This document shows positions 2,966-59,099 of a stretch of DNA of 64,000 nucleotides, one piece after another (positions within the stretch are counted from its first letter, which is position 1; each line of letters starts with the position of its first letter). The notes beneath the pieces were generated by a model. That model was not told the origin of the DNA, searched no databases, and saw only the letters and a program-made list of their open reading frames with translations. The DNA comes from Pirellulales bacterium. Lineage in GTDB: Bacteria; Planctomycetota; Planctomycetia; Pirellulales; JALHPA01. The stretch is taken from contig JBGSSS010000210.1 of the NCBI GenBank assembly GCA_041736895.1, positions 7,169 to 71,168 of the forward strand, in the 5' to 3' direction. The position numbers and the translations under genes were made by a program.

Positions 2966-3093
2966 TAGCAGCGCCTCACATTGCGGCTCTGCCCGGGGCA
3001 AGCCACGCGCGCAGCCCTACCCAACGCGCGCAGCACTGAGTGATCTCATGTATACTATATATGGAGATATTTGTCAAGCCCAGTATTTTTGTG

Positions 3094-3117
3094 CCAGTGC
3101 CACTGGCTCGGCCAGTG
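3094..3117 (+). repeat. CCAGTGCCACTGGCTCGGCCAGTG palindromic repeat
   Basis: Same 24-mer at 28340-28363. Hairpin CCACTGGC-TCG-GCCAGTGG. Confidence 0.6.
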
Positions 3118-5980: not shown

Positions 5981-6012
5981 AGAAACGCTCCTCTTCGAGT
6001 CGCCGCTAAACG
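5981..6012 (+). repeat. 32-nt dispersed repeat (AGAAACGCTCCTCTTCGAGTCGCCGCTAAACG)
   Basis: Reverse-complement copy at 21218-21249 (CGTTTAGCGGCGACTCGAAGAGGAGCGTTCTT). Confidence 0.7.
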
Positions 6013-6043
6013 AAAGAATCATTAAGCATCACTGCCGCAGCAT

Positions 6044-6078
6044 CTCCAATCCCGAATCCCCAACCCCTAATCCCTCGC
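6044..6078 (+). repeat. C-rich heptanucleotide tandem array (CCCCAAT type)
   Basis: CTCCAAT CCCGAAT CCCCAAC CCCTAAT CCC. The last C-run ends 14 nt before the pssA ATG. Confidence 0.8.
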
Positions 6079-7033: not shown

Positions 7034-7173
7034 GTTGGGCCTTGGGCGCTGGCTATTGGGCGCTGGTCAGCATTTTGATGCAGAGTTCTCTCTCGAATAA
7101 TTCATTGGTTCTTGAAGCATCGTTTAACTTTGTAATTCTCCGACCAACGCCCAATCCCCAACGCCCACAACCC
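7034..7173. repeat. inverted pair of G-rich / C-rich heptamer arrays
   Basis: GTTGGGCCTTGGGCGCTGGCTATTGGGCGCTGG (7034-7066) and CCAACGCCCAATCCCCAACGCCCACAACCC (7144-7173) flank a 77-nt AT-rich spacer. The right arm ends at the ribE ATG. Confidence 0.75.
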
Positions 7174-7764
7174 ATGTTCACCGGTCTCGTCGAACATTGC
7201 TTGCCATTGACCGCGGTGATCGAAGAGCCGCCGGGGCGAAGGCTCGTGCTCGCCGTGCCGGCCTATCGCAGTGAGATTACGCTGGGCGAGAGCATCGCAA
7301 TTAACGGGTGCTGTCTGACCGTCGTCGAGATCGATGGGGACAAGCTCCATTTCCAAGCCGGACCCGAGACGCTCGCGCGGACGAACCTGGGCCAGCTTGC
7401 GACCGGCAGCCGGGTGAACATTGAGCGCTCGCTACGCTTTGGTGATCGGCTCGGCGGGCATTTGGTTACGGGGCACATCGATGGCGGCGGCACGGTCGCA
7501 AGGCGCGAGGATGTCGCCGATTGGTCGACGTTTTACTTCGCCGCGCCGCCGAACCTGCTCCGGCAAATGGCGAGCAAAGGCTCCATCGCCGTCGATGGCG
7601 TGAGCCTGACCTTGGTCGAGGTCACCGACCAACACTTCTCGGTCCAACTCATTCCGCACACACTCGCCGTGACGACACTCGGCGCGAAAAAGGTTGGCGA
7701 TGCGGTGAACCTGGAAACGGATCTGCTGGCCAAGTATGTCGAGCGGCAGTTGGTGTCCAAGTAG
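7174..7764 (+). CDS. ribE: riboflavin synthase alpha chain
   Basis: MFTGLVEH...INGCCLTVV...VNIERSL...GHLVTGHIDG...VDGVSLTLV is the duplicated lumazine-binding pattern. The ORF-track N-terminal extension (from 6742) is rejected. Confidence 0.9.
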   Translation: MFTGLVEHCLPLTAVIEEPPGRRLVLAVPAYRSEITLGESIAINGCCLTVVEIDGDKLHFQAGPETLARTNLGQLATGSRVNIERSLRFGDRLGGHLVTGHIDGGGTVARREDVADWSTFYFAAPPNLLRQMASKGSIAVDGVSLTLVEVTDQHFSVQLIPHTLAVTTLGAKKVGDAVNLETDLLAKYVERQLVSK

Positions 7765-10390: not shown

Positions 10391-10397
10391 GAAATGC

Positions 10398-10424
10398 TCC
10401 CAGGGGATGAACCCCTGGGCTTTG
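10398..10424 (-). repeat. CAAAGCCCAGGGG-N4-CCCCTGGGA palindromic repeat
   Basis: TCCCAGGGGATGAACCCCTGGGCTTTG, between the convergent rsmA and metallophosphoesterase genes. Confidence 0.7.
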
Positions 10425-10441
10425 CTTTATGTCGCTTTGCC

Positions 10442-12132: not shown

Positions 12133-12166
12133 GCGGAAATGAACGGGAACACGTAATGCGCGACCG

Positions 12167-12193
12167 CAAAGCCCAGGGGTTCACCCCCTGGGA
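12167..12193 (+). repeat. CAAAGCCCAGGGG-N4-CCCCTGGGA palindromic repeat
   Basis: CAAAGCCCAGGGGTTCACCCCCTGGGA. Identical to 33491-33517. Confidence 0.7.
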
Positions 12194-12496: not shown

Positions 12497-12609
12497 AGCG
12501 TTGGCGCGGAGCGAGTATCCCGATGATTTCGAACGTTAGGCATTCATGCCTAACCGCTTAGCCGGAGCGTCTACGCCCGGCGTGGCAGACTGGAAAGCCT
12601 GACCTCCGA

Positions 12610-14100: not shown

Positions 14101-14108
14101 GATGGAAT

Positions 14109-18522: not shown

Positions 18523-18585
18523 AAGGATAAAGGAACAAGGAAAAAGGTGGTTTTACCCCACCTTTTTCCTTATCCCTTTTTCCTT
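18523..18585. repeat. long imperfect palindrome (core GGAAAAAGGTGG-TTTTACC-CCACCTTTTTCC)
   Basis: Core stems at 18539-18550 and 18558-18569, extended by AAGGATAAAGGAACAA / TTATCCCTTTTTCCTT. Lies in the divergent promoter region between 18148 and 18612. Confidence 0.55.
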
Positions 18586-18611: not shown

Positions 18612-19877
18612 ATGGAAAAGCCGCATCCCATTGCGCTGCCCTCAGTTCTCATCATCGGCGGTGGCGTCATCGGCGCTGCTTCAGCGCATTATCTTTCGCA
18701 AGCTGGCTGCAAGGTCACCATCATTGACCGCGGCCGGTTCGCCGGGGCATGCTCGCACGCCAATTGCGGTCTCATCTCCCCGAGCCATGTCCTGCCGCTT
18801 GCCGAACCGGGGATGCTGAGCGCTGGGCTCAAAGCGATGCTCAACCCGGCATCGCCGCTGCGCATCAAGCCCCGTTTGGATTGGCAGTTCCTGAAGTGGC
18901 TATTCAACTTTGGCCGGCGCTGCAACTTCGAGGACATGCTAGAAAGCGCGCGCGGCATTCAACCGTTGCTCGATTCTTCGCGCGAATTGTACGATGAATT
19001 AGTCAAGGTCCAAGGGCTCGCCTGCGAGTGGCAGACGCAAGGGTGCTTGTTCGTCTACAAGACGAAGGAGGCACTCGACCACTTCGGCGCAACCGACAAA
19101 CTACTAGGCGAAGTTTTCAACGCCGGCAGCACGTTGATCCGCGGCCATGAACTCACGGACTTCGAACCGGCGCTCAAGCCGGGACTCGCCGGCGGCTGGT
19201 TTCACTCGCACGATGCGCATCTGCGCCCTGATGTGTTGATGAAGTCGTGGCGGGCGCACCTGGAACGCGGGGGCGTGACGATCCGCGAGCAGTGTGAGCT
19301 GCAAGATTGGATCATGACCGATGGCCGCGTGACCGGAGCGCGCACGTCGCAAGGGAACTACGAAGCTGATCAAGTTGTCGTCGCCACGGGCGCGCTGACG
19401 CCGCTCTTGCACAAACTCCTTGGCGTCAAAGTTCCGATTCAACCGGGCAAAGGTTACTCGATCACGATGCCGCGCCCGAGCATCTGCCCGACGCACCCGA
19501 TGCTCCTGCCCGAGGCGCGCGTCGCCGTGACGCCGTTCGACACCGGCTATCGTCTCGGGTCAATCATGGAACTCGCTGGGTACGACGACACGCTCGATCC
19601 CAAGCGCGTCGCGCTGCTCAAGAACGGCGCGCGGGATTACTTGCATGAACCGACTGCCGAACCGGTAGTCGAAACGTGGTTCGGGTGGCGGCCAATGACA
19701 CCCGACAGCCGGCCGATCATCGACCGCGCGCCGATCGCGGAGAATGTCTGGCTCGCGGCGGGCCACAACATGCTCGGCCTCAGCATGGCCCCGGCGACGG
19801 GTAAACTCGTCAGCGAATTGATCCTCGGCAAGCAACCGCACGTCAACCCGCGGCCGTATCGATTGGATCGGTTTTGA
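18612..19877 (+). CDS. FAD-dependent oxidoreductase (D-amino-acid dehydrogenase-like)
   Basis: VLIIGGGVIGAASAHYLSQAGCKVTIIDR dinucleotide-binding motif. DAO-family length and C-terminal GHNMLGLSMAPATG. Confidence 0.85.
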   Translation: MEKPHPIALPSVLIIGGGVIGAASAHYLSQAGCKVTIIDRGRFAGACSHANCGLISPSHVLPLAEPGMLSAGLKAMLNPASPLRIKPRLDWQFLKWLFNFGRRCNFEDMLESARGIQPLLDSSRELYDELVKVQGLACEWQTQGCLFVYKTKEALDHFGATDKLLGEVFNAGSTLIRGHELTDFEPALKPGLAGGWFHSHDAHLRPDVLMKSWRAHLERGGVTIREQCELQDWIMTDGRVTGARTSQGNYEADQVVVATGALTPLLHKLLGVKVPIQPGKGYSITMPRPSICPTHPMLLPEARVAVTPFDTGYRLGSIMELAGYDDTLDPKRVALLKNGARDYLHEPTAEPVVETWFGWRPMTPDSRPIIDRAPIAENVWLAAGHNMLGLSMAPATGKLVSELILGKQPHVNPRPYRLDRF

Positions 19878-20066: not shown

Positions 20067-21158
20067 ATGCCTGATCTCTTTTCTGAATTCGAACTCCGCG
20101 GCGTTCGTCTCAAGAATCGCATTGCGATGTCGCCGATGTGTCAGTATTCGGCCATCGATGGGGTGCCAAATGAATGGCATCATGTCCATCTCGGGTCGCA
20201 TGCGATTGGCGGCACGGGGTTGATCATTGTTGAGGCGACGGCCGTCTCGCCCGAGGGGCGGATCAGTCCGGGTTGCACGGGGCTCTGGAACGACACGCAG
20301 CGCGACGCATTTGTGCCGATCGTGAAGTTCCTTGAAAGCCAAGGTTCGATGCCGGGCATTCAACTGGCCCACGCGGGCCGCAAAGCCAGTGCCCAGCGGC
20401 CGTGGGAAGGGGACGCGCATCTGCCCGCCGAACATCCCGACGCCTGGGAACCGGTCGCGCCGTCGGCGCTGGCGTTCGGCGCAAATCTGCCGCGCGTGCC
20501 GCGTGAATTGACCATCCCCGAGATCACGAAGATTCGCGAAGACTTTGTCGCCGCGACGAAGCGCGCCGTGCAAGCCGGGTTCAAGTGGCTGGTTCTGCAC
20601 TTCGCGCATGGGTACCTGGGCCAGAGTTTCTTTTCGCCGCTGGCGAACAAACGCACCGATGACTGTGGCGGCAGCTTCGAGAACCGCGCACGGTTCTTGC
20701 TTGAGACGTTGCAAGCGGTGCGCGAAGTTTGGCCGGCCGAGTACCCGCTCACCGCGCGGCTCGGCGTGATCGATTATGTCGAGGGCGAACAGCCGCTCGA
20801 AGAATCAATTGAACTCGTGCGGCAAATGAAAGCCGCCGGGCTCGATCTGGTCGATGTCAGCATGGGCTTCAACACGCCGAATATCAGTAATGTGCCGTGG
20901 AAAGAACACGCCTTCCTCGCCCCGATCGCCGCGCGGATCAAGCAAGAGGTCGGTATCCCCGTCACGTCGTCTTGGAACTTCAGTGACACGGTGAAGATCA
21001 ACGAACTGATCCAAAACGGGTCGATTGACTTGGTCAATCTCGGCAAGACGCTGCTCAGTGATCCCAACTGGCCGTATCATGCGGCGCAGACACTCGGAAA
21101 AAATCGACCGCAGGATATTCTGGCGATACAATACGGGCATTGGCTGAAGCAACGCTGA
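20067..21158 (+). CDS. NADPH dehydrogenase / NADH:flavin oxidoreductase, Old Yellow Enzyme family (YqjM/NamA-like)
   Basis: LKNRIAMSPMCQYSA...WHHVHLGSHAIGGTGLIIVEATAV...HFAHGYLGQSFFSPLANKRTD. Confidence 0.9.
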   Translation: MPDLFSEFELRGVRLKNRIAMSPMCQYSAIDGVPNEWHHVHLGSHAIGGTGLIIVEATAVSPEGRISPGCTGLWNDTQRDAFVPIVKFLESQGSMPGIQLAHAGRKASAQRPWEGDAHLPAEHPDAWEPVAPSALAFGANLPRVPRELTIPEITKIREDFVAATKRAVQAGFKWLVLHFAHGYLGQSFFSPLANKRTDDCGGSFENRARFLLETLQAVREVWPAEYPLTARLGVIDYVEGEQPLEESIELVRQMKAAGLDLVDVSMGFNTPNISNVPWKEHAFLAPIAARIKQEVGIPVTSSWNFSDTVKINELIQNGSIDLVNLGKTLLSDPNWPYHAAQTLGKNRPQDILAIQYGHWLKQR

Positions 21159-21164
21159 GCAAAT

Positions 21165-21192
21165 GATAGTTGATAATGGACAATTGACAATG
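21165..21192 (+). repeat. AT-rich heptanucleotide tandem array (GACAATT/GATAATG type)
   Basis: GATAGTT GATAATG GACAATT GACAATG, between the OYE gene stop and the cupin gene start. Confidence 0.75.
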
Positions 21193-21217
21193 AATACGAG
21201 TCGTTGCTTCGTTCTCC

Positions 21218-21249
21218 CGTTTAGCGGCGACTCGAAGAGGAGCGTTCTT
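21218..21249 (-). repeat. 32-nt dispersed repeat, inverted copy
   Basis: See 5981-6012. About 30 of 32 positions match by eye. Confidence 0.7.
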
Positions 21250-22692: not shown

Positions 22693-22895
22693 CGTCGCAC
22701 CCCGTGTCCAGAGATTGGCTGAAGACCATACAAGAATACGACAGCTCGAGGTTTTCGAACAATCCCGATTCGCCGAGCCTTTTCCGTAGTCCAAGCTGTC
22801 AGCATCGAGTATCTTGAGGAATTCCGCGCGGCGGGGAAGATCGCGCGGGCGATCCAGCGGGCGGAACCGCTGGGATTCGACAGGGCATGGGTATG

Positions 22896-22931
22896 CCCCC
22901 AACCCTCAATCCCGAACCCCCAATCCCGAAC
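22896..22931 (+). repeat. C-rich heptanucleotide tandem array (CCCCAAT type)
   Basis: CCCCCAA CCCTCAA TCCCGAA CCCCCAA TCCCGAA C. Ends 2 nt before ATG 22934. Confidence 0.8.
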
Positions 22932-22933
22932 TC

Positions 22934-25900
22934 ATGCCTCCGTCCCGTCCCGCTTGGCTGTGGTGGATGTTTGCTGGCACGATTGTGCTGAGCGCGTTTC
23001 TGCTCTTCTTGGTCCAGCCATTGATCGCCAAGATTCTCTTGCCCTGGTTCGGCGGGTCGACCGGCGTGTGGGCGACGTGTGTCGTCTTCTTTCAGGTCAT
23101 GCTTGTCTTTGGCTACGCTTACGCGCATGCGCTGACCACATACTTGACACCGAAGCAACAAATGCTGACGCATCTGGCATTGCTCGGGCTCGCGGTCCTT
23201 GCCGCCGGATGGTCGATCATGCCCGGCGATTCGTGGCGGCCCGAGAATAGTGATCTGCCGATTCTCAAATTGGGCTTGCTGCTGTTGCGTTATGTGGGGC
23301 TGCCGTATTTCGCGCTGGCGACGACGGGTCCGCTGGTCCAGGCTTGGTTCGCGCGATTGTTTCCGGGCAAGACGCCGTACCGGTTGTACGCGCTGTCGAA
23401 CTTCGGCTCGCTGGCGTCGCTGCTCCTGTTTCCGACGGTGTTCGAGCAGTTTTTTGGCCTGCGCTTGATGTCGACGGGGTGGTCGTTGCTGTTTGCGATG
23501 TTCGCGGCGTTGGCTGCGGGCGTGGCGTACTTGACCTGGCGTGAAGCGCCGCATCCTATTTCAGCAGTTCCAGCCTCAGCAACTGATGTTGTAGAAGAAC
23601 AAAACAGCAAGGGACAAAATCGCAAGCAAGTCAAACTCAAGCGGAATGAACTTCCAACTTCCGAAGCCGCCGCCGAACCGACTTGGGGCAGTTATCTGCT
23701 CTGGCTTGCGCTGCCGGCGTTTGCGTCGTACATGCTCGTCGCCGGCACGAATCACCTCTGCCAGGACGTCGCCTCGGTGCCGTTCTTGTGGGTGATGCCG
23801 CTGAGTTTGTATTTGATTTCGTTCATCATTTGCTTCGATCACGAGTATTGGTATCAGCGGCTGGTCTTCGCGGCGATCGCCTTGGCCGGGTTGTACATGT
23901 CGGCCGGCATGTACCAACTCGATTTCGAGCCGACGCTTTCCCAAGGGCTGCTGGTGCGCGGCACATGGCCCGTCACTCGGCCGCTGTATGAATCCATGGA
24001 TTGGTACAATCACCCCACCCGCAAGCACGAGATTCCGAATTATCAACAATGGCTTGCGGAGTTGGAGAAAACGAAAAAAGAGCAGCATGACAAGACGCCC
24101 CTGGTACAAGCCGACTTGCCTGCGATGTATCAAGATTATGTCAAAGTGAAAGATCAGGAGCGGTACGATGCTTGGCTGGCCGCAGAAAAAGAAGTCGACC
24201 CGCTCGTGAAGGCGAACCTTGAAAGCACGGAGTACATCAAAAAAAAGTACAAAGCCTGGCTCCAGCAACGCGCAAATATCAATTGGCTCGAGAATGAACA
24301 ACACGTCCCGCTGCTCAACGTCAATTTCATCGGCCAGATTCTCGCCCACTGCGTTGGGCTGTTTGGGTTGTTCATGATCTGCCACGGGGAACTGACGCGG
24401 CGCAAACCGCCGGCGCGCTACTTGACGTCGTTTTATATGATGATCGCGATCGGCGGCGCCATCGGCGGCGCGCTGGTCAGTTTGGCCGCGCCGTTTGTGT
24501 TCGATACCTATGCCGAGTGGTTCCTCGGTCTGATCTTGGCGCTGCTCTTGGTGGGCGGGCTGTTGTTGGATCAACCCGGCGGCGAATGGTACAAGTCGCG
24601 GTTCTTTTGCCTCGCGCTCCCCGCCGCGCTGGTTTCTCTCTATGTGATCTGGAAAATTTCCAACCTGCCCGAAGAGTACCTGAATTGGGCTGACCCCGAG
24701 GCGTATCAGAAGTATCTCGAAGAGAAAAAAGGAGTCGCCGCGCTCAAAGAGGTTTCTTTGCCCGAGGGAAAACTCTTCGGACTGCATTACGCGTTGCCCT
24801 TGATGGGACTGCTCTTTGCGATTATCGGCATCGGATTTTATGCGTTATGGGAGCGCGCCTGGCAGCGCGACAAACTGCGCTTCTGGGTCGTCAATTTGTC
24901 CATGTTGCTCTTGGTATGTTTTGCGGTTTGGGATGGCTTGAATTTTCTGGAACTAATCAGAGATGCCGAGGGTCAGGAAAAAGCGAATTGGAGCCTATAC
25001 AAAGACCTGCCCCCGATCCCGTTTGATTCCGACGAATCCTACCAGCAACTGATGGCCAGCGCTCGCGAAATCCGGAGCCAAAACACGAATGGTGCTGAAG
25101 AAGACGAGGACGACCCCTTCTATGAAAAGAAGATCTTCCAAGGCCGCAACTTCTACGGCGCTCTCTCGGTCCATGAACAGATTCACCTGATTAATCCCGA
25201 ATACAGTTTTCGCTATCTAATGCACGGGCGAATTCTACATGGAAATCAGTTCCTCGAAGGGCCGTTGCGTTATCAGCCGACGAGCTATTACCCGACCGAT
25301 AGCGGGGTAGGGTTGGCCATCGGGCATTTTGGCCGGACGAATAAGCTGGAGCTCGATGAGGTCAAGTTTGGCAACCCAAACTATGTTGCCTATGCCGCGT
25401 TTATCGCCAGTAAGATCGGTTTCACCAGCAAGTTAAGCCTTGTTGTGAAGTCGCCGGCTTTCACAGCGATGTTTATCGCTAACAATGTGTGTCTCGCCAG
25501 CAAAGTCAGTTTCTTTTTTTACGAATCTCAACGGAACATCAATCTGGATCTCGAAAAATTTTTAGCCGAGTCTGCGGCGCCTGCCTCTTATGCCGCGTAT
25601 ATCGCCAGCAATGTTGGTCTCGCCAGTAGGCTTGGTCTCGCGGCCAGCGAAGCTCGCCGGGATCGCAAGCTGAGTCTCGAAGAATTCAAAGTCATGTTCT
25701 TGAAGCCTGCCACCTATGGTGCGTTCCTGACTACCAACATCGGCCTTGCCATCGCGGATAAGATGCACATCGGCGCGATTGGGCTTGGCACTGGCACAAT
25801 TGCTGCTTATGGCAAACAGCCCGGCCAGCAATTCACGATCTACGAAATTAATCCGCTCGTCGAGCAACTCAGCGCGACGGATGACGGCTTTTTCAAGTAC

Positions 25901-26440
25901 ATTTCCGATGCCAAAAAGCAGTTTGGCTGTCTGGTCAAGATCGTGCTGGGCGACGCGCGGCTACAGATGCAACTCGAAGCGGATGCCGGAATCAAGCGCA
26001 ACTTCGACGTGTTGGTCGTCGACGCGTTCAGCGGCGACTCGATCCCGACACACTTGCTAACGCGCGAGGCGATGGATACTTATGTCAAGCACATGCGCTC
26101 CGACCAATCGATCATCGCGATTCATATTACGAACCGCTACTTGAATCTGCGGCCCGTCTGCCGCGGCCTGGCCGAATACGCCAAGCTCGACGGTTGCATC
26201 GTGCGCAATGAGCGCAAGGATAACGGCTGTTCGCCGTCAACCTGGGTGCTGCTCACGAACAATCGCGTGTTCCTTGATCAAACAGTACCAAGTGTTGGAT
26301 TTAATTACGGCCCCCTCTTCAACAAGAAAATCGACCGCATCCTCTGGACGGACGATTTCACGACGCTGATCAATATCCTGCACGGCACGGGAGGCAAACC
26401 CGAGGAAGATTCTGAAGACGAAGCCGTCGAGGATGATTGA
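22934..26440 (+). CDS. fused polytopic membrane / spermidine-synthase-like (class I methyltransferase fold) protein
   Basis: N-terminus LFLVQPLIAKILLPWFGGSTGVWATCVVFFQ and many TM helices. C-terminal IGLGTGTIAAYG...VLVVDAFSGDSIPTHLLT spermidine-synthase-like motifs. ATG at 22934 directly after a heptamer array. Confidence 0.8.
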   Translation: MPPSRPAWLWWMFAGTIVLSAFLLFLVQPLIAKILLPWFGGSTGVWATCVVFFQVMLVFGYAYAHALTTYLTPKQQMLTHLALLGLAVLAAGWSIMPGDSWRPENSDLPILKLGLLLLRYVGLPYFALATTGPLVQAWFARLFPGKTPYRLYALSNFGSLASLLLFPTVFEQFFGLRLMSTGWSLLFAMFAALAAGVAYLTWREAPHPISAVPASATDVVEEQNSKGQNRKQVKLKRNELPTSEAAAEPTWGSYLLWLALPAFASYMLVAGTNHLCQDVASVPFLWVMPLSLYLISFIICFDHEYWYQRLVFAAIALAGLYMSAGMYQLDFEPTLSQGLLVRGTWPVTRPLYESMDWYNHPTRKHEIPNYQQWLAELEKTKKEQHDKTPLVQADLPAMYQDYVKVKDQERYDAWLAAEKEVDPLVKANLESTEYIKKKYKAWLQQRANINWLENEQHVPLLNVNFIGQILAHCVGLFGLFMICHGELTRRKPPARYLTSFYMMIAIGGAIGGALVSLAAPFVFDTYAEWFLGLILALLLVGGLLLDQPGGEWYKSRFFCLALPAALVSLYVIWKISNLPEEYLNWADPEAYQKYLEEKKGVAALKEVSLPEGKLFGLHYALPLMGLLFAIIGIGFYALWERAWQRDKLRFWVVNLSMLLLVCFAVWDGLNFLELIRDAEGQEKANWSLYKDLPPIPFDSDESYQQLMASAREIRSQNTNGAEEDEDDPFYEKKIFQGRNFYGALSVHEQIHLINPEYSFRYLMHGRILHGNQFLEGPLRYQPTSYYPTDSGVGLAIGHFGRTNKLELDEVKFGNPNYVAYAAFIASKIGFTSKLSLVVKSPAFTAMFIANNVCLASKVSFFFYESQRNINLDLEKFLAESAAPASYAAYIASNVGLASRLGLAASEARRDRKLSLEEFKVMFLKPATYGAFLTTNIGLAIADKMHIGAIGLGTGTIAAYGKQPGQQFTIYEINPLVEQLSATDDGFFKYISDAKKQFGCLVKIVLGDARLQMQLEADAGIKRNFDVLVVDAFSGDSIPTHLLTREAMDTYVKHMRSDQSIIAIHITNRYLNLRPVCRGLAEYAKLDGCIVRNERKDNGCSPSTWVLLTNNRVFLDQTVPSVGFNYGPLFNKKIDRILWTDDFTTLINILHGTGGKPEEDSEDEAVEDD

Positions 26441-26446
26441 AAAAAT

Positions 26447-26514
26447 GGATAATTGACAATTGATTATTGACAATGTGCGAGACACTTGCATTGTCCATTG
26501 TCCATTATCAATTC
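26447..26514. repeat. inverted AT-rich heptamer arrays (hairpin-forming), 3' of the fur-family gene
   Basis: GGATAATT GACAATT GATTATT GACAATG, then a 13-nt loop, then CATTGTC CATTGTC CATTATC AATTC. Between convergent stops at 26440 and 26523. Confidence 0.8.
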
Positions 26515-26522
26515 GATTGCGG

Positions 26523-26969
26523 TTACTTCGGACAACTCCCGCAGTGCCCCTTGAGCAGCACCTCGGTCACTTCGAGCTTCTTCGCCGCTTTGTTCGTCGG
26601 CTTGATCGCGACGTTGACGTCCTCCAGGCACGTCACCTCGCCGCAATCGACGCAGACAAAGTGCGGGTGCTCGAGCGTGCCATCTTGATTTGGCCGCTTG
26701 AGTTCAAACCGATAAAGATGATCGCCGAGTTCGATCCGCGAGACAAGACCCGCGTCCGAGAGCTCGATCAAGTTGCGATAGATCGTCGCGCGGTCAAAGC
26801 CCTTGGACTCGAGCGCGTCAGCCATTTGCGCATGGGTCAGCGGCGAAAGCGCATCGATCAGCATTTGCATGACCCAAAGCCGCGCGGCCGTCGAGCGCAG
26901 ACCCGCCTCGCGGAGTTTCTTGCGGACAATGTCCAGCGAAGGTTCGGCGGCAGCAGGAGGTTTGGGCAT
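26523..26969 (-). CDS. Fur family transcriptional regulator
   Basis: GLRSTAARLWVMQMLID...THAQMADAL...ATIYRNLIELSDAGLV winged helix; HPHFVCVDCG...CGSC metal sites. ATG at 26969; upstream codons are a translated repeat. Confidence 0.85.
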   Translation of the reverse strand: MPKPPAAAEPSLDIVRKKLREAGLRSTAARLWVMQMLIDALSPLTHAQMADALESKGFDRATIYRNLIELSDAGLVSRIELGDHLYRFELKRPNQDGTLEHPHFVCVDCGEVTCLEDVNVAIKPTNKAAKKLEVTEVLLKGHCGSCPK

Positions 26970-26974
26970 CGGGG

Positions 26975-27067
26975 CAATGGATAATTGATAATGGACAATT
27001 GACAATTAAAAACAGCAGCAGCGACAGCTTCCATCATTGTCCATTATCAATTGTCAATTATCAATTG
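26975..27067. repeat. inverted AT-rich heptamer arrays, 5' of the fur-family gene
   Basis: CAATG GATAATT GATAATG GACAATT GACAATT, then a 24-nt spacer, then CATCATTGTC CATTATC AATTGTC AATTATC AATTG. Begins 6 nt upstream of the fur-family ATG. Confidence 0.8.
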
Positions 27068-27079
27068 CTATCCCTTGCG

Positions 27080-28246
27080 TTAATTGGCCTCAACGGCCAG
27101 CGCTGCCGCATAATTCAGCAAATCGCCCCGTTCGCGGCAGAGGGACTTGAGCGTCCCAAAGTCCCGGGCTTGCTTGGATAGTTCCAAAAGCGTTGGGGCG
27201 AAGCCGCCGGTTCGTGTGCCGGGCGGCAAGAGTTTGGCCGACGCGGCGATTGCGTCGCTCCAACGGCCCAGCCGTTGCAACAGGACGATGTACGTCTCGG
27301 CCGCGCCGGTGCCGATCACCAATTGATCGTCGGTTTCAGCCCGCGCGTGAAAAAAGGCAAGTGCTTTGTCAACATCCTGCCCGAGTTGCGCATTGAAATA
27401 GAGCAGGTGCGTGGAGTAGGTTTGCTCGAACGGCGCATCGCCCTCGAATTGGAATTGCTTGGCGAGCTTCAACCCATAAGCGCAAAGATCCGCCAAGAGC
27501 GACAAGACGGTGGCGTCTTCGACGATCCGCCCGATGCGCACGACCGAGTTGAGGTGTGTCGTATCGACGTGATAGTTGTTGTCGCTAAAGAGCCAATCGC
27601 GTTCGGCAACGAGTTCCGCCAGGCTCGTGGCTTGCGCTTCGCGTCCTTCGCGGCGATGGATTTCGGACCGGAGATTGCGGCTGAGTTCCTTGTACAGATG
27701 ACGAACCAAGAGCTCGGCGCAGCGCTGTTGGTCACGCGGCGCTGCATTGGCTAGCTGACTGTCGTAGACGGTGATCGCGTTACAGGTTCCGTGCCACTCC
27801 AGCAACAACTCGAACCCATACGCGGGGTCGATTCGTTCTTGCAGCCCCAGTTCGATCAGATCCTCGGCCGTGTCGTCATCGACTTCGACAGCGCGCAGCG
27901 CGGCGGCCATTTCTTTTGTTGAACCCGTGGGGCGAAGGTACATCCACGCTTCGCGGAGCTTGCCCGCGGCGAGCATTTTCGCGCCGATTTCCTGACACGC
28001 GGCGAGGTACGCCTGTTCGACCTTGTCGCGTTGTTCGTTCGGCAACTCATCGAGCGAGCCGCTGCCGACGGGCGGCAAACCGAGCTTGACGCGCGCCTGC
28101 ATCAAGCGCGTGTCGAAGAGTTCATGCAGCCGATTTTCGCGCGCGAAATGATCGGCGAGTGCGGCGAGCATCCCCTCGACGCCGCCTTGCGTCAATGCTT
28201 GATCCAAAGCATCTAACGAGGCAGTCGGGCTAGTGGCAGTAGACAA
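27080..28246 (-). CDS. hypothetical protein (alpha-helical)
   Basis: Long ORF with coding-like composition. The only ATG (28426) lies beyond a dispersed palindromic repeat. In-frame TTG at 28246 is preceded by GAGGAG. No family recognised. Confidence 0.55.
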   Translation of the reverse strand: MSTATSPTASLDALDQALTQGGVEGMLAALADHFARENRLHELFDTRLMQARVKLGLPPVGSGSLDELPNEQRDKVEQAYLAACQEIGAKMLAAGKLREAWMYLRPTGSTKEMAAALRAVEVDDDTAEDLIELGLQERIDPAYGFELLLEWHGTCNAITVYDSQLANAAPRDQQRCAELLVRHLYKELSRNLRSEIHRREGREAQATSLAELVAERDWLFSDNNYHVDTTHLNSVVRIGRIVEDATVLSLLADLCAYGLKLAKQFQFEGDAPFEQTYSTHLLYFNAQLGQDVDKALAFFHARAETDDQLVIGTGAAETYIVLLQRLGRWSDAIAASAKLLPPGTRTGGFAPTLLELSKQARDFGTLKSLCRERGDLLNYAAALAVEAN

Positions 28247-28339
28247 AGCGGAGGCTCCTCGAAAAGTTTCCTCGCCAGGAAGTTGGCGAGGAATCTTTAT
28301 TTTAGATGCCCCGGTGAACTGATGATAGGGAGCAGTCTT

Positions 28340-28364
28340 CCAGTGCCACTGGCTCGGCCAGTGG
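28340..28364 (+). repeat. CCAGTGCCACTGGCTCGGCCAGTG palindromic repeat
   Basis: Second copy. Lies inside the ATG-initiated 5' extension of ORF 27080-28426. Confidence 0.6.
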
Positions 28365-28566
28365 AATTTTTCAAATGCCAAATGTTCCAGATGTTCACGA
28401 GATACTGCTCGCGAAAAGGACAACACTTGAAAGTGTTTCCTAGAATCAGGTGTTTCTCAGCCGACCGAAAAGACACTCGCCGCGGCGAGTGGCACGATTC
28501 GGGCGTTTCAGAATCATTGCTGATCAGTCTGAATCAGCAACATCAGCCCAATCAGTGTCCAATTCG

Positions 28567-28761: not shown

Positions 28762-28981
28762 TGGTTTTTAGAAGCCCGCGGCGTGAGCCAGGGAGTGAAA
28801 TCAAAGTCAAAAGTCGAAAGGCAAAAGGAATGGTTTTCATTTTTCATCGGCCAAAGCCGCGGCGAGTCATGCGGCAAATCGTCCAAGTGACGGATCTTGC
28901 CGACGGTAACGATTACGCAGGCCATTGCGGACCAGCAGGGGATGATTTATCACACTGAGCAGCGGCTTGCATCGAAAATAC

Positions 28982-29008
28982 TCCCAGGGGAAAATCCCCT
29001 GGGCTTTG
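28982..29008 (-). repeat. CAAAGCCCAGGGG-N4-CCCCTGGGA palindromic repeat
   Basis: TCCCAGGGGAAAATCCCCTGGGCTTTG. Confidence 0.7.
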
Positions 29009-29026
29009 CAGGTTTCATTTCGCATT

Positions 29027-29061
29027 CCCCAACCCCCAATCCCGAATCCCCAACCCCCAAG
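29027..29061 (+). repeat. C-rich heptanucleotide tandem array (CCCCAAT type)
   Basis: CCCCAAC CCCCAAT CCCGAAT CCCCAAC CCCCAAG. Ends 6 nt before ATG 29068. Confidence 0.8.
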
Positions 29062-29067
29062 CAACCC

Positions 29068-31242: not shown

Positions 31243-31393
31243 TTTGATCGTCCATGATCGAGTCTCGAAGTCAGCAATACTTTTTGTTTAGCAGATATTG
31301 ATTTCGAGAGATACGCGAATTGCGGGTGAGTTCCTCAATAGGAGACCACCCAGACGATAACTCATGCTAGCAGATCAGGAACTTCCTCTTTTC

Positions 31394-33465: not shown

Positions 33466-33490
33466 ATCGCGAGAATCATCGAATCACGAG

Positions 33491-33517
33491 CAAAGCCCAG
33501 GGGTTCACCCCCTGGGA
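33491..33517 (+). repeat. CAAAGCCCAGGGG-N4-CCCCTGGGA palindromic repeat
   Basis: CAAAGCCCAGGGGTTCACCCCCTGGGA, between msrA and the hydrolase gene. Confidence 0.7.
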
Positions 33518-33586
33518 GCATTCTGGGCATGCAGCAACTCTCCTTTTCACGCACTCTCCCCCCGGTCATTGACCGGGGGCTAATTT

Positions 33587-44751: not shown

Positions 44752-45110
44752 TCATTCTTTTTTCCTGTTGCTCCCGGCGCAACACCGCCAGACTCTCGAA
44801 AAACCGGGCAAAGCTGGGAAAAATCCGGGAAACACCACCGAAAACGCGCGAAAAAACCCAAAAAAATCGCAAAAAGATCGGAAAAAAACGCAAAAAGAAC
44901 GAAAAAAATCAGAAAAAAACGCAAATGTGCGCGCCCCCAATGTCCGTGTTTAAACGAACACCGCTTCGAGCGACTACCACAATCCCGCGGGCAAACCACA
45001 CTCGCCGCGCGCCGGGTCAGGCCCAAGCCGGACAAAGCGCGCGCCGCCCGATTTTGGGGTGTTGCCTTAAAAGGCAACACTCGCGGGGCTTTTGGGTCGT
45101 TCGTCGCCGC
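44752..45110 (+). repeat. phased-A-tract element, copy B
   Basis: Same orientation and architecture as copy A. A-tracts at 44799-44919. Hairpins at 44767-44783 and 45061-45078. Confidence 0.85.
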
Positions 45111-55583: not shown

Positions 55584-55659
55584 GGGATCACTCAAAAATG
55601 AGTTCCGCATTTTTTGTCGCCCGCAGAGTTACAACATGATGCAACTGCTATCACGGAAT

Positions 55660-55761
55660 AGCTCCGAAGGAGCGGCATTGTGTAGCCAGGGGTGTAAGCC
55701 CCTGGTTGACTTCACCAGGGGCTTGCACCCCTGGCTACATTCCTTCGCTCCTTCGGAGCTT
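55660..55761. repeat. nested ~100-nt palindrome containing a GTAGCC-headed doublet
   Basis: AGCTCCGAAGGAGCG...GTAGCCAGGGGTGTAAGCCCCTGG...CCAGGGGCTTGCACCCCTGGCTAC...CGCTCCTTCGGAGCT. Confidence 0.6.
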
Positions 55762-56070
55762 TGCCAGCAGATGTAGAATGTTGGTTAGCGAGGGCGACAA
55801 TAAACTTATGACGCCCTCGCTAACGCTACGGGCTATAAATTCCTCACTCACGGCAGGTGCCTGGGGTTGAGCAAGCGGTCCTCCGCACCAGGAAGACAGC
55901 GAACCCCCAGCGAGTTCAAGCTTGCGCTAAAAAAACAATAAAGCTGGGGGCCGCGCGATTGCGCTCCGACCCCAGTCACCCGTTGTTTTTAAAGAATTTC
56001 AAGCTTTTTTCTCGCTTGGTGTCGAATCATGTCGCGGCACTGTGTTTGTCTTGGTAAGGAGACATGACAA

Positions 56071-56682: not shown

Positions 56683-59099
56683 AAGTATCTCCCTGTGAAA
56701 AAGACCGCATCAACGAGTTCTTTCAGAGCGAGAGTAGCTGTGCGGAAGTTGAATTGGCCCAGCACCTTGAAGCCTGTGAATCGTGCCGTCAGTACTTCGA
56801 CTACCAAGCTGCTCCGCCGTACCGGTGGCGGGAAGCCACGCAACTGCTCCAACCCACCGAATTCGATCAGGCCAGCACCGCGGAGTTTTCCGCCGCAGCC
56901 CTGGGCCAGCGCGCGCCGCATCAGCCGTTGATGATTCAGTCGGTGCTCGATAGTCTCGCCCCCACGGATGATCCGCATCGCCTCGGGCGCTTGGGCGGTT
57001 ATGAGATTTCTGGCGTGATTGGGGTCGGAGGGATGGGCGTCGTGCTCAAAGCTTTTGATCCGGCGCTGGATCGTGTGGTGGCCATCAAAGTGATGGCTCC
57101 CCATCTGGCCAATAACGGCAGCTCCCGCAAGCGATTTACGCGCGAGGCGCGGGCGGCCGCGGCAGTGCTCCACCCCAACGTGATTCCCATCCACAGTGTG
57201 TCCAGCGATGCAGCGCTGCCGTACTTGGTCATGGCCTACATTCGGGGCGGCTCGCTGCAAAAACGGCTGCAACAACAGGGACCATGCACGACGGTCGAGT
57301 GTTTGCGGATCGGCGCGCAGATCGCAGCGGGCTTAGCTGCGGCCCATGAACAAGGGCTAGTGCATCGCGACATCAAGCCGGAAAACATCCTGCTCGACGA
57401 AGGGGTCGAGCGCGTCACGCTCACCGATTTCGGCTTGGCCCGCGCGGTGGACGATGCTTCGGTCACGCGCGATGGGACGATCGCCGGCACTCCCCAATAC
57501 ATGTCGCCCGAGCAAACACTCGGCAAATCGATTGATCAGCAGAGCGATTTGTTCAGTCTGGGATCCGTGCTCTATACTCTCTGCACGGGACGTCCGCCGT
57601 TTCGCGCGGATTCCTCTTATGCCGTGATGCGCAAGATCAGCGATGAAGCGCCGCTGCCGATTCGTGAATTGAATCCAGAAATCCCGGCGTGGCTCTGTGC
57701 CATCATCGGCAAGCTGATGGAGAAGAACAAAATCCACCGCTATAAAACTGCCCGCGAAGTTCATGAACTGTTGGAAGCGTGCTTAGCCCATGCTCAGCAG
57801 CCGACGGTCTTTCAACTGCCTGCTCCGCTCCGTGCTGGCAACAACAGCGCCGGCCGATTCCTGAAATTGGCGGCCGGATCACCGAGATTGCTGACTGTTT
57901 CCGCGGCTTTGGCCATCTTTCTAGGGATTGGCATCGACGCGGCATTTTTTGCCCCACCCCCGGCCAATCAGGCGGCCAATGAAATCCCCGGCGAGGGCGA
58001 AGCCCTGGGCTTTAGCTACACGCGCAAGGGCGACTTCATCTACTATAACGGCCGGCGCATCGACCAAGCTGGCAAAGAAACCCTTCTGCGGGCATCGTTG
58101 CGCCTGGGGCAAATGCTGAAACTTGCCCAAGACGTCGATGCCGCGAGCTTCAAAGTCCTGAGCGATGAATACACCAAGGACAAGAACAAGGTCTATTACA
58201 AATGGAACAGCCCTGATGGGCAATTTTGGGTGGTTGAACTGCCGAAAGCCGAGGCAATGAGCTTCGAAGTCATTGGCTTTAACCTTGGCAAGGACAACAA
58301 ACAGGTCTGGTGGTATGGCAGTCCGATGCCCGGCGTCGATCCCAAAACTGTCGAACTGGTGAACGATGGTTTCGTCTGGAAGGATGCTAAGAATGTCTGG
58401 TACCAGGATGAACAAATTGTCGAGGCAGATCCCCGGACATTTCGGCACCTGGAGCAAGCGTTTTATTCCGACAAGAGTCATGTTTATTGGTCGGGTACCC
58501 GCCTGAATGGCGCGAACCCTGTCCTCTTTCGGACGTTTGGCGACGAGAGTCCTTACGGCGCTGATCTGAATTGTGTGTGGCGGGGCTCCGAGCAAATTTT
58601 CAATGTTGATGCGCCATCCTTCGAGACGGTTCACCAGTCGGTCTATCTCGACAAGAATGGCGTTTACGCTAGCGGGAATCCCCTGGACAACGCCGATCCG
58701 AAAACCTTTCGCAAGTTAGTTAACCTGGACATCCATTTCACCGCGTTGCTGGCGGATGCGAATCAGCACTACGTCTATCTGCCGTATCGCGGCGAAGTCT
58801 ATCGCGTCTGGTTGGAAGACAAGGCGCTGAAAGTCGAGCGGCGGATTTGGTCTCTCAAGGACCCGCGAAAACCGGCCGCTGGATATAAATCCGTAGGGAT
58901 CTTCTCGGCAGAACTTGGAGCCAATGGCTGGATCAACCCCGTCTTCGCCTCGGACCTTCCGCCGAAAGAAAGTCAGTCGTTTGTGGATGAAGATATTCGA
59001 CTGCTCAAGCTCTACGACGGCCGATTCGCGAAAGCAAAGGAGATCCTGAGTAAAAAGCCCGATGCCAAAGAGGATGTTCCAAAAGAAGGCAATCAGTAA
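56679..59099 (+). CDS. anti-sigma (zf-HC2)-Ser/Thr protein kinase fusion with TM helix and DKNYY-repeat periplasmic domain
   Basis: HLEACESCRQYF zf-HC2. Kinase motifs GVGGMGVVLKA, HRDIKPENILL, DFGLA, GTPQYMSPE. TM segment LLTVSAALAIFLGIGI. Repeats DKNKVYY / DAKNVWY / DKSHVYW / DKNGVYA. Confidence 0.9.
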   Translation: MKVSPCEKDRINEFFQSESSCAEVELAQHLEACESCRQYFDYQAAPPYRWREATQLLQPTEFDQASTAEFSAAALGQRAPHQPLMIQSVLDSLAPTDDPHRLGRLGGYEISGVIGVGGMGVVLKAFDPALDRVVAIKVMAPHLANNGSSRKRFTREARAAAAVLHPNVIPIHSVSSDAALPYLVMAYIRGGSLQKRLQQQGPCTTVECLRIGAQIAAGLAAAHEQGLVHRDIKPENILLDEGVERVTLTDFGLARAVDDASVTRDGTIAGTPQYMSPEQTLGKSIDQQSDLFSLGSVLYTLCTGRPPFRADSSYAVMRKISDEAPLPIRELNPEIPAWLCAIIGKLMEKNKIHRYKTAREVHELLEACLAHAQQPTVFQLPAPLRAGNNSAGRFLKLAAGSPRLLTVSAALAIFLGIGIDAAFFAPPPANQAANEIPGEGEALGFSYTRKGDFIYYNGRRIDQAGKETLLRASLRLGQMLKLAQDVDAASFKVLSDEYTKDKNKVYYKWNSPDGQFWVVELPKAEAMSFEVIGFNLGKDNKQVWWYGSPMPGVDPKTVELVNDGFVWKDAKNVWYQDEQIVEADPRTFRHLEQAFYSDKSHVYWSGTRLNGANPVLFRTFGDESPYGADLNCVWRGSEQIFNVDAPSFETVHQSVYLDKNGVYASGNPLDNADPKTFRKLVNLDIHFTALLADANQHYVYLPYRGEVYRVWLEDKALKVERRIWSLKDPRKPAAGYKSVGIFSAELGANGWINPVFASDLPPKESQSFVDEDIRLLKLYDGRFAKAKEILSKKPDAKEDVPKEGNQ

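Follow-up and report, generated by a model that had tools for sequence, protein, structure and literature searches.

Short tandem repeats with a seven-base unit have, to our knowledge, been known in bacteria since 1990 without acquiring an accepted function. They include the short tandemly repeated repetitive (STRR) sequences of the cyanobacteria Calothrix and Anabaena, among which STRR2 has the unit TT(G/T)GTCA. Other small intergenic repeats are palindromic, or are miniature inverted-repeat transposable elements (MITEs): the repetitive extragenic palindromic (REP) sequences and bacterial interspersed mosaic elements (BIME), the enterobacterial repetitive intergenic consensus (ERIC) and the Correia elements of Neisseria (Neisseria miniature insertion sequences, NEMIS), all of which are co-transcribed with genes and fold into RNA hairpins. 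REP elements are summarised in PMC3733652. Heptameric simple sequence repeats (SSRs) are over-represented in bacterial intergenic DNA, for which polymerase slippage has been suggested, and arrays of GGGGA(T/C)T in Nostoc and of GGGAATC in Xanthomonas, some of them in inverted pairs, were reported with no function described (PMC4692102). Repeats of TAACTGA occur in Beggiatoaceae, Cyanobacteria and Bacteroidetes, are not found in close relatives, and were proposed to be post-transcriptional sites (PMC4679880). In Nostoc, heptamer repeats affect the expression of recF and recO, according to a preprint (10.1101/2022.06.06.494920). Here we describe arrays of the heptamer GAYAATK that bracket a Fur-family regulator gene in a 64 kb stretch of contig JBGSSS010000210.1 from a Pirellulales bacterium (the window), and that are very probably a generic repeat and not a Fur-specific one.

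The Fur-family gene (fur; 26523-26969, minus strand) is flanked on both sides by imperfect hairpins of inverted GAYWATK heptamer arrays, as established by direct reading of the sequence. The heptamer is written GAYWATK or GAYAATK and its complement MATTRTC, and the polarity X...X' stands for 5'-(GAYAATK)n...(MATTRTC)n-3'. A census of the arrays of this genome over about 67 kb (the window plus 3.2 kb recovered beyond it) gave two hairpins and one solo arm, with the following parts:

26441..26475, plus strand: left arm of hairpin 1, AAAAAATG and then four GAYWATK units, opening 1 nt past the TGA of a convergent gene for a 1208-aa protein
26476..26488, no strand: loop of hairpin 1, 13 nt, TGCGAGACACTTG, with a small GC-containing apical stem (TGCGAG/CTTGCA)
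26489..26514, plus strand: right arm of hairpin 1, the three MATTRTC units CATTGTC, CATTGTC and CATTATC followed by AATTC
26974..27007, plus strand: left (fur-proximal) arm of hairpin 2, GCAATG and four units, its end 6-10 nt from the fur ATG
27008..27034, no strand: spacer of hairpin 2, 27 nt, unrelated to the loop of hairpin 1
27035..27069, plus strand: right (distal) arm of hairpin 2, four units and AATTGC, starting on the minus strand about 11-17 nt past the TAA of a gene for a 448-aa protein
21159..21194, plus strand: solo arm, GCAAATG and the units GATAGTT, GATAATG, GACAATT and GACAATG (21165-21192), in the sense orientation 6 nt past the stop of an Old Yellow Enzyme (OYE)-family gene

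Each arm thus holds three or four head-to-tail units that differ in minor ways, and every arm is intergenic. The left arm of hairpin 1 reads GATAATT, GACAATT, GATTATT, GACAATG (26448-26475), with AATG directly 5'. On the minus strand this hairpin begins 8-13 nt past the fur TAA and is followed by CCAUUUUUUCAA, which would give a U6 tail. The left arm of hairpin 2 reads GATAATT, GATAATG, GACAATT, GACAATT (26980-27007), the AATG that opens its array region being separated by 6 nt from the fur ATG (26969, minus strand), and the right arm reads CATTGTC, CATTATC, AATTGTC, AATTATC (27035-27062). The solo arm sits 5' of the OYE-family gene's own GC-rich hairpin (21197-21233).

Neither chance nor misassembly accounts for these structures. 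A three-unit pattern, allowing at most two mismatches, matched 12 times in the window, where 100 dinucleotide shuffles averaged 0.02 matches, and all 12 fell at the three loci; Tandem Repeats Finder (TRF) likewise detected the heptamer arrays. The window as a whole contains 9 arrays of period 7 compared with 0.1 in shuffles, while periods 5, 6 and 8-12 give 0-1. The heptamers concerned are of several types: GAYAATK, C-rich CCCCAAY/CCCGAAT just before start codons, AAAGTCA, and inverted AAGGAWA. Both hairpins were base-for-base identical in two independent short-read assemblies (Logan SRR28170465 and SRR28170467), showing that they are not an assembly artefact, and one Logan contig ends inside hairpin 2, a break typical of repeats. 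An earlier, sequence-only reading of this DNA had reported the arrays on both sides of the Fur-family gene and the solo arm at 21165-21192, and direct reading, the pattern scan and the two assemblies agree with it at every point save the spacer of hairpin 2, which it gave as 24 nt where 27 are present (27008-27034).

The arms within the window are related to one another at 89-96% identity, and the loops of the two hairpins are unrelated. The 89% identity between the solo arm (21159-21194) and the proximal arm of hairpin 2 includes their flanks, pointing to copying rather than independent slippage. When folded as RNA, hairpin 2 was more stable than expected on both strands (z = -4.7 minus, z = -4.85 plus), and for hairpin 1 the plus strand gave z = -3.06 and the minus strand z = -1.41. 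A search of the arrays against Rfam produced a single hit, to a miRNA model, which at 24 bits (gathering score 135, E = 0.26) is below threshold and attributable to chance. The arms bracketing fur are also complementary across the gene (outer pair 91% over 32 nt, inner pair 96% over 24 nt); the possibility that the intervening segment with fur inverts was considered and rejected, both assemblies and the relatives sharing the orientation seen in the window, with no sign of inversion.

Relatives of this locus carry fur without the arrays. Locus L001 is syntenic with 17.3-35.6 kb of the window, encodes a Fur protein that is 93% identical, and has 78-86% nucleotide identity in coding DNA; GAYAATK arrays were found there neither beside fur nor 3' of the OYE-family gene, and the arrays therefore vary between close relatives. 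They were also missing from the fur loci of L002-L004. Together with 80 loci from a metagenome scan that used a Fur alignment as query, these four make up 84 orthologous fur loci spanning 570 kb, in which no GAYAATK array was found. Between fur and its upstream partner gene L001 has an unrelated GC-rich hairpin (z = -6.65; the equivalent in L004 has z = -2.53), and another unrelated hairpin lies 3' of its OYE-family gene (z = -4.31). That relatives keep other hairpins at the same positions suggests that a hairpin there is useful. In 25 of 79 fur orthologues (L136-L195 and L004) the sequence GTGTAGACT (or GTGTAGAAT) occurs 6-12 nt before the ATG, and the GTGTAGACT motif is not present in the window. 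Its placement suggests a conserved extended -10 box that would give a leaderless or near-leaderless fur mRNA in this group of Planctomycetota.

The same arrays recur far outside the Planctomycetota. We scanned GTDB species genomes and IMG/VR viral contigs for four consecutive GAYWATK units and collected at least 120 stretches from each. The GTDB matches listed included filamentous and unicellular Cyanobacteria, many Bacteroidota, Clostridia, and two Planctomycetota metagenome-assembled genomes (MAGs; L068 and L104), together with Acidobacteriota (Thermoanaerobaculia), Chloroflexota (Anaerolinea), the Candidate Phyla Radiation (CPR) and others, amounting to at least 10 phyla. The same four unit variants are used at all of the GTDB loci listed, several of which are 60-70% GC. 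Some IMG/VR phage contigs carry 5-19 arrays within 10 kb. All-against-all clustering of the 1,880 open reading frames (ORFs) neighbouring the 120 loci listed found no shared family, whether transposase, REP-associated tyrosine transposase (RAYT) or regulator, at more than 6 of the 120, and a Fur hidden Markov model run on the same 1,880 ORFs matched no gene except that of the window itself. The same array-bearing loci contained about 100 further heptamer types.

In several of these genomes the element is present in more than one copy. A Gemmataceae MAG (L068) has two copies with arms and loop in common, and Crocosphaera has three with a common 88-nt interior; there are 5-6 copies in the phage contig L243, and in L238 the copies are nested. 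No consistent target-site duplication was seen at the elements checked, the 5-nt GATTG flanking hairpin 1 only. As a separate observation, positions 523-988 of the IMG/VR contig L236 consist of seven tandem copies of a 73-nt unit, each a four-unit array (GACAATG and three GATAATG) plus a 45-nt GC-rich segment.

The paired arms have a fixed polarity. All 68 close inverted pairs are of the form X...X' (15 of 15 among the genomes listed, 53 of 53 among the viral contigs listed), as are both hairpins in the window. They are also placed at the ends of genes. In the viral contigs a stop codon lies within 20 nt of the array in 81 of 160 cases (median distance 18 nt) and a start codon in 42 of 164 (median 66 nt). 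Solo arrays 1-60 nt past a stop are more often sense than antisense (56 vs 21, p = 8e-5; 33 vs 10 in the viral set and 23 vs 11 in genomes), although these distance and orientation counts rest on crude ORF-based gene maps. Most units contain TAA or TGA on the sense strand and none on the antisense strand, and since stops internal to the array can bias ORF maps, orientation was recounted using only stops outside the array. The four stop codons next to arrays in the window are each 6-17 nt away, and every gene meets a GAYAATK arm first. We also considered stop codons in three frames as a rationale for the polarity; this is not general, as pure (GACAATG)n arrays and several arms have none or one.

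The spacers between inverted arms have a median length of 36 nt, and a GC hairpin ending in a T-rich tail lies between the arms in 26% of pairs, compared with 3.5% of length-matched control segments (a 7.5-fold enrichment). In L243, a phage structural module with its genes on one strand, 5-6 copies of four units, 51 nt and four units each lie 2-29 nt past a stop, and the spacers hold GTCGCC-TTCG-GCGAC followed by TATTTT in either orientation. In four stretches of this contig (1832-1937, 3856-3962, 7960-8066 and 8620-8725) (GACAATG)n in one arm faces the complement of (GACAATT)n in the other, a pairing that places a G·A (or U·C) mismatch at every seventh base pair. Such regular mismatches may protect long palindromes from cleavage.

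The explanation that we favour, and which on balance we think somewhat probable in its entirety, function included, is that of a generic heptamer-armed gene-end hairpin acting as a transcript-end stem-loop. The element would be a lineage-specific MITE- or REP-like hairpin whose arms are short tandem GAYAATK arrays of the heptameric SSR/STRR type, probably mobile or propagated by copying, and in the window it would be represented by two copies that have diverged and by a solo arm. It would occupy the first 20 nt or so past stop codons at fixed polarity, so that transcripts arriving from either side meet the GAYAAUK arm first and its complement after. Once transcribed, it is predicted to fold into a long AU-rich stem-loop that would mark or insulate transcript ends, whether by terminating transcription weakly or in both directions, by stabilising 3' ends or by acting as a site of RNA processing. 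The terminator of fur would be hairpin 1, which has the U6 tail, and hairpin 2 would substitute for the unrelated GC-rich hairpins that relatives have downstream of the gene for the 448-aa protein. In doing so, hairpin 2 may incidentally have overwritten the region that holds the leaderless-type -10 box in orthologues. With that region replaced, fur would probably be expressed by read-through or from a modest array-internal site, TTGATA-N17-GACAAT.

Several observations weigh against this explanation. The termination or processing role of the hairpins is one that we infer; a consensus terminator scan flagged neither window hairpin, their stems being AU-rich and imperfect, and the sole U-tract is that of hairpin 1 on the fur strand. 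The loops are unrelated and no convincing target-site duplication is present, which leaves mobility in this genome conjectural. The sense bias is weak in the genome set alone (23 vs 11, p = 0.058, from the crude ORF-based maps). The three array loci are clustered within 5.9 kb (p about 0.02, for the roughly 67 kb examined); local copying may explain this, and a local regulatory role would predict it as well. Finally, incidental binding of Fur to the arrays has a small probability, given the reported binding of GATAAT arrays by the E. coli protein.

Among the alternatives, the one that survives best is that the arrays are functionless selfish or slippage DNA, the product of neutral 7-nt polymerase slippage or of passive MITE insertion, with the hairpin and promoter traits incidental. 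The arrays are not found in close relatives, neighbouring units are mostly alike (T,T 199; C,C 103; mixed 114) as slippage predicts, and some 100 other heptamer types share the same loci; heptameric SSRs are moreover known to be over-represented between genes, with slippage proposed (PMC4692102). Neutral slippage nevertheless fails to predict the 68 of 68 polarity, the adjacency to stops, the 56 vs 21 sense bias or the 7.5-fold excess of enclosed terminator-like hairpins, and in relatives of the window other hairpins occupy the same positions. We regard this account as possible but improbable.

The favoured gene-end hairpin can also be extended into a much broader, and at this stage doubtful, proposal about the cross-phylum family. 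Its members would constitute a single undescribed mobile gene-end module, polarity-locked in 68 of 68 pairs, about 20 nt from stops and often equipped with an intrinsic terminator, present in at least 10 phyla and abundant in phages, which possibly spread it. Such a module would function as a naturally occurring, portable cassette for termination or insulation, possibly as a site of RNase III-type processing, and its insertions on either side of fur would here have rewired transcription of that gene.

Another possibility is that the arrays are promoter donors: with a 7-nt register, TTGACA at unit i and GATAAT at unit i+3 are separated by 17 bp, and each array could thus act as a portable sigma-70 promoter, here for fur. 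The best promoter-like match is indeed the TTGATA-N17-GACAAT site (9/12) in the distal arm of hairpin 2, directed at fur, and a new promoter would be needed, unless fur is read through, with the leaderless -10 box missing from the window. Yet sigma-70 matches reach only 8-9/12, the promoter-like reading in inverted pairs faces inward to the spacer, arrays lie nearer stops than starts, and they are common in Bacteroidota, whose promoter consensus differs. Across 114 arrays, C at unit i with T at i+3 occurred 18 times and the reverse 19 times. We rejected a designed sigma-70 promoter as the organising principle of the arrays for this absence of order asymmetry and the modest local matches, and the donor role as a whole seems to us quite unlikely.

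Weakest is the idea that the arrays are Fur operators giving autoregulation, one of two options put forward by the sequence-only reading. In the form considered here, the encoded Fur protein would bind the GATAAT/GACAAT units, polymerise over the arrays and autoregulate its gene, possibly controlling the OYE/cupin locus too. In its favour, GATAAT hexamers are present, hairpin 2 reaches to 6 nt from the start codon of fur and covers the one promoter-like site (9/12), and the three array loci known in this genome all fall in a 5.9-kb interval about fur (p about 0.02 if placement were uniform). Against it, no array is found at any of the 84 orthologous fur loci, the syntenic relative with 93% amino acid identity included, and neither the classical 19-bp Fur box (GATAATGATAATCATTATC) nor the 7-1-7 dyad (TGATAATNATTATCA) occurs in the 64-kb window at three or fewer mismatches. 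Hairpin 1 follows fur, and the solo arm lies in the 3' untranslated region (UTR) of the OYE-family gene, 5' of a terminator-like hairpin and hence not at a promoter position. Identical arrays recur in phages and in at least 10 phyla, and among the 120 loci listed none has a Fur gene beside it. We therefore consider operator function very unlikely indeed. In 1998 Escolar and colleagues reportedly showed that the Fur protein of E. coli binds synthetic arrays with at least three GATAAT hexamers. The likeness to a Fur box lies in these hexamers, in the AT-rich composition of both, and in the one array copy that abuts the fur start. The arrays differ in being direct repeats in a 7-nt register, and therefore offering no dyad for a Fur dimer to read, in not being conserved at fur orthologues, and in having no link to Fur or metal genes elsewhere. 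As to position, hairpin 2 lies upstream of fur and overlaps the promoter-like site; hairpin 1 and the solo arm each lie in a 3' region.

Compared with the known systems, the arrays most resemble the heptameric SSRs and STRR sequences, having head-to-tail 7-nt units, usually in 3-5 copies, in intergenic DNA, with related unit variants mixed. As in that class, presence differs from one close relative to the next, and the spread across phyla is patchy and centred on Cyanobacteria and Bacteroidota; inverted pairs are occasional in Xanthomonas. Here, however, the unit is GAYAATK, the host is a planctomycete, and the arrays are typically paired hairpins of fixed polarity after stop codons. The option that the sequence-only reading itself preferred, that the arrays are an AT-rich counterpart of the C-rich heptamer arrays, comparable to STRR2, and double as bidirectional terminators, fared well in part. 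The period-7 enrichment, the occurrence of the unit set in cyanobacteria and other phyla, the placement 6-17 nt past four stops and the terminator-like hairpins often enclosed elsewhere are in its favour; the match of ATTGTCA to STRR2 extends to 6 of 7 positions, with one difference, and canonical terminator features (the U6 tail) are confined to hairpin 1 on the fur strand. Like intrinsic terminators, the hairpins are stem-loops right after stops, hairpin 1 having an A-tract on one side and the U6 tail on the other, and arrays in other genomes and phages enclose canonical modules of GC hairpin and T-tract. Unlike intrinsic terminators, the array stems are long, AU-rich and mismatched, and no U-tract follows hairpin 2 or the plus strand of hairpin 1. 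The TAACTGA repeats differ in lying just upstream of start codons, whereas the GAYAATK arrays come after stops.

The REP, ERIC and Correia elements are similar in being short (60-210 bp), with inverted arms, at gene ends or between genes, in multiple copies of either orientation, some of them nested; for them too termination, mRNA stabilisation or processing has been proposed, and their presence differs between relatives. The arms of the present element differ in being imperfectly complementary tandem heptamer arrays, in which pairing can consequently slip in 7-nt steps, and the element had no detected transposase or RAYT neighbour and no target-site duplication. REP, ERIC and Correia elements are lineage-restricted, whereas the GAYAATK arm is common to many phyla and to phages. 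A literature search for the repeat sequence returned no relevant paper in the library searched, and several features appear not to have been described before: the GAYAATK unit as such, paired arms of absolute polarity, gene-end placement, frequently enclosed terminators, phage abundance and presence in Planctomycetota.

Related Pirellulales loci carry other heptamers, among them the reverse complement of TAACTGA. In L002, arrays of TCAGTTA/TCAGTCG and of AACTGAY at 2350-2389 and 3080-3113 correspond to the TAACTGA heptamer in a Pirellulales relative, and extend that repeat to the Planctomycetota. The window itself has a further inverted pair:

18523..18585, no strand: AAGGAWA-armed hairpin, AAGGAWA arrays, a 7-nt loop and TWTCCTT arrays, with 28-nt arms that are 89% complementary

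This hairpin lies about 27 nt upstream of a DAO-family gene beginning at 18612, and as judged from its letters it shows inverted heptamer arrays to be an apparently generic design in this genome. C-rich arrays with the units AATCCCC, AATCCCG and AACCCCC were found at 6042-6076, 7144-7174, 22897-22931 and 29016-29065. Each stops 3-15 nt before the same-strand ATG of a long ORF (6089, about 7174, 22936 and 29069), and in an organism without visible Shine-Dalgarno (SD) sequences they may be leader elements. L001 does not have the C-rich array that precedes the YjgF-family gene. The AATCCCC-type arrays of the window are identical to the Nostoc/STRR1 unit, and match the AATCCCC/GGGGATT unit of PMC4692102.

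The intergenic DNA of the window also contains dispersed palindromic repeats, GC-rich and REP-like, that belong to at least six families, AATGCTCCCAGGGG..CCCCTGGGCTTTGC being an example. They were located at 10393-10426, 12166-12193, 28977-29009, 33489-33522 and 57982-58015; at 14105/14888/34530/34685; at 31393/34465/34718; at 48657/48810/50925; at 5984/21212; at 12545/35620; and at 55655-55765. The copy at 21212-21246 is directly 3' of the solo heptamer arm. A region of about 270 nt occurs twice, at 2648-2947 and 44798-45093, the two copies being 81-82% identical and 42 kb apart; each begins with A-rich tandem repeats of 10-11/21 nt (GAAAAACGCGG-like) and continues with a conserved 87-nt segment.

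The genes next to the arrays are as follows:

26523..26969, minus strand: Fur-family transcriptional regulator, 148 aa (PF01475, E = 1.2e-12)
27080..28426, minus strand: gene for a 448-aa protein that matches nothing in Pfam or NCBIfam, with hairpin 2 in its 3' region
22936..26440, plus strand: convergent gene for a large membrane protein, 1208 aa by longest ORF, with a weak spermidine-synthase-like domain, probable start ATG 22936
20067..21158, plus strand: OYE-family (Oxidored_FMN) gene, whose 3' UTR holds the solo arm

The window Fur protein scores under every NCBIfam subfamily cut-off, so that its subfamily is not assignable, and its closest solved relatives are Fur and PerR (about 1e-8). 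It has more than 1000 homologues, the named ones being assigned to Pirellulales. The gene for the 448-aa protein is the conserved upstream partner of fur in L001, L002 and L004; the partner proteins are of about 390-470 aa (window 27080-28426, minus strand; L001 8646-9818; L002 8758-9924; L004 8483-9889), and the recurrence of this gene order in several Pirellulales suggests a functional pair or an operon. For the 1208-aa gene, the TTG at 22814 that opens the longest ORF is probably wrong as a start: a C-rich array stops just before the ATG at 22936, and 22814-22936 would encode an Arg- and Ser-rich stretch read out of the repeat.

At this locus, then, a story of Fur autoregulation is unsupported. 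Striking as it looks, the presence of arrays on both sides of fur is most readily accounted for by local copies of a generic element, which appears to have overwritten the ancestral fur promoter region, and it is the regularities at the level of the family that were unexpected. The polarity, the post-stop placement, the enclosed terminators, the copies in phage operons and the unit shared across phyla provide testable handles on the function of the heptamer class, and the same regularities hint at how the class spreads. If the arrays are indeed portable transcript-end modules, they would be relevant to the annotation of operons in SD-poor phyla and could be useful as parts.

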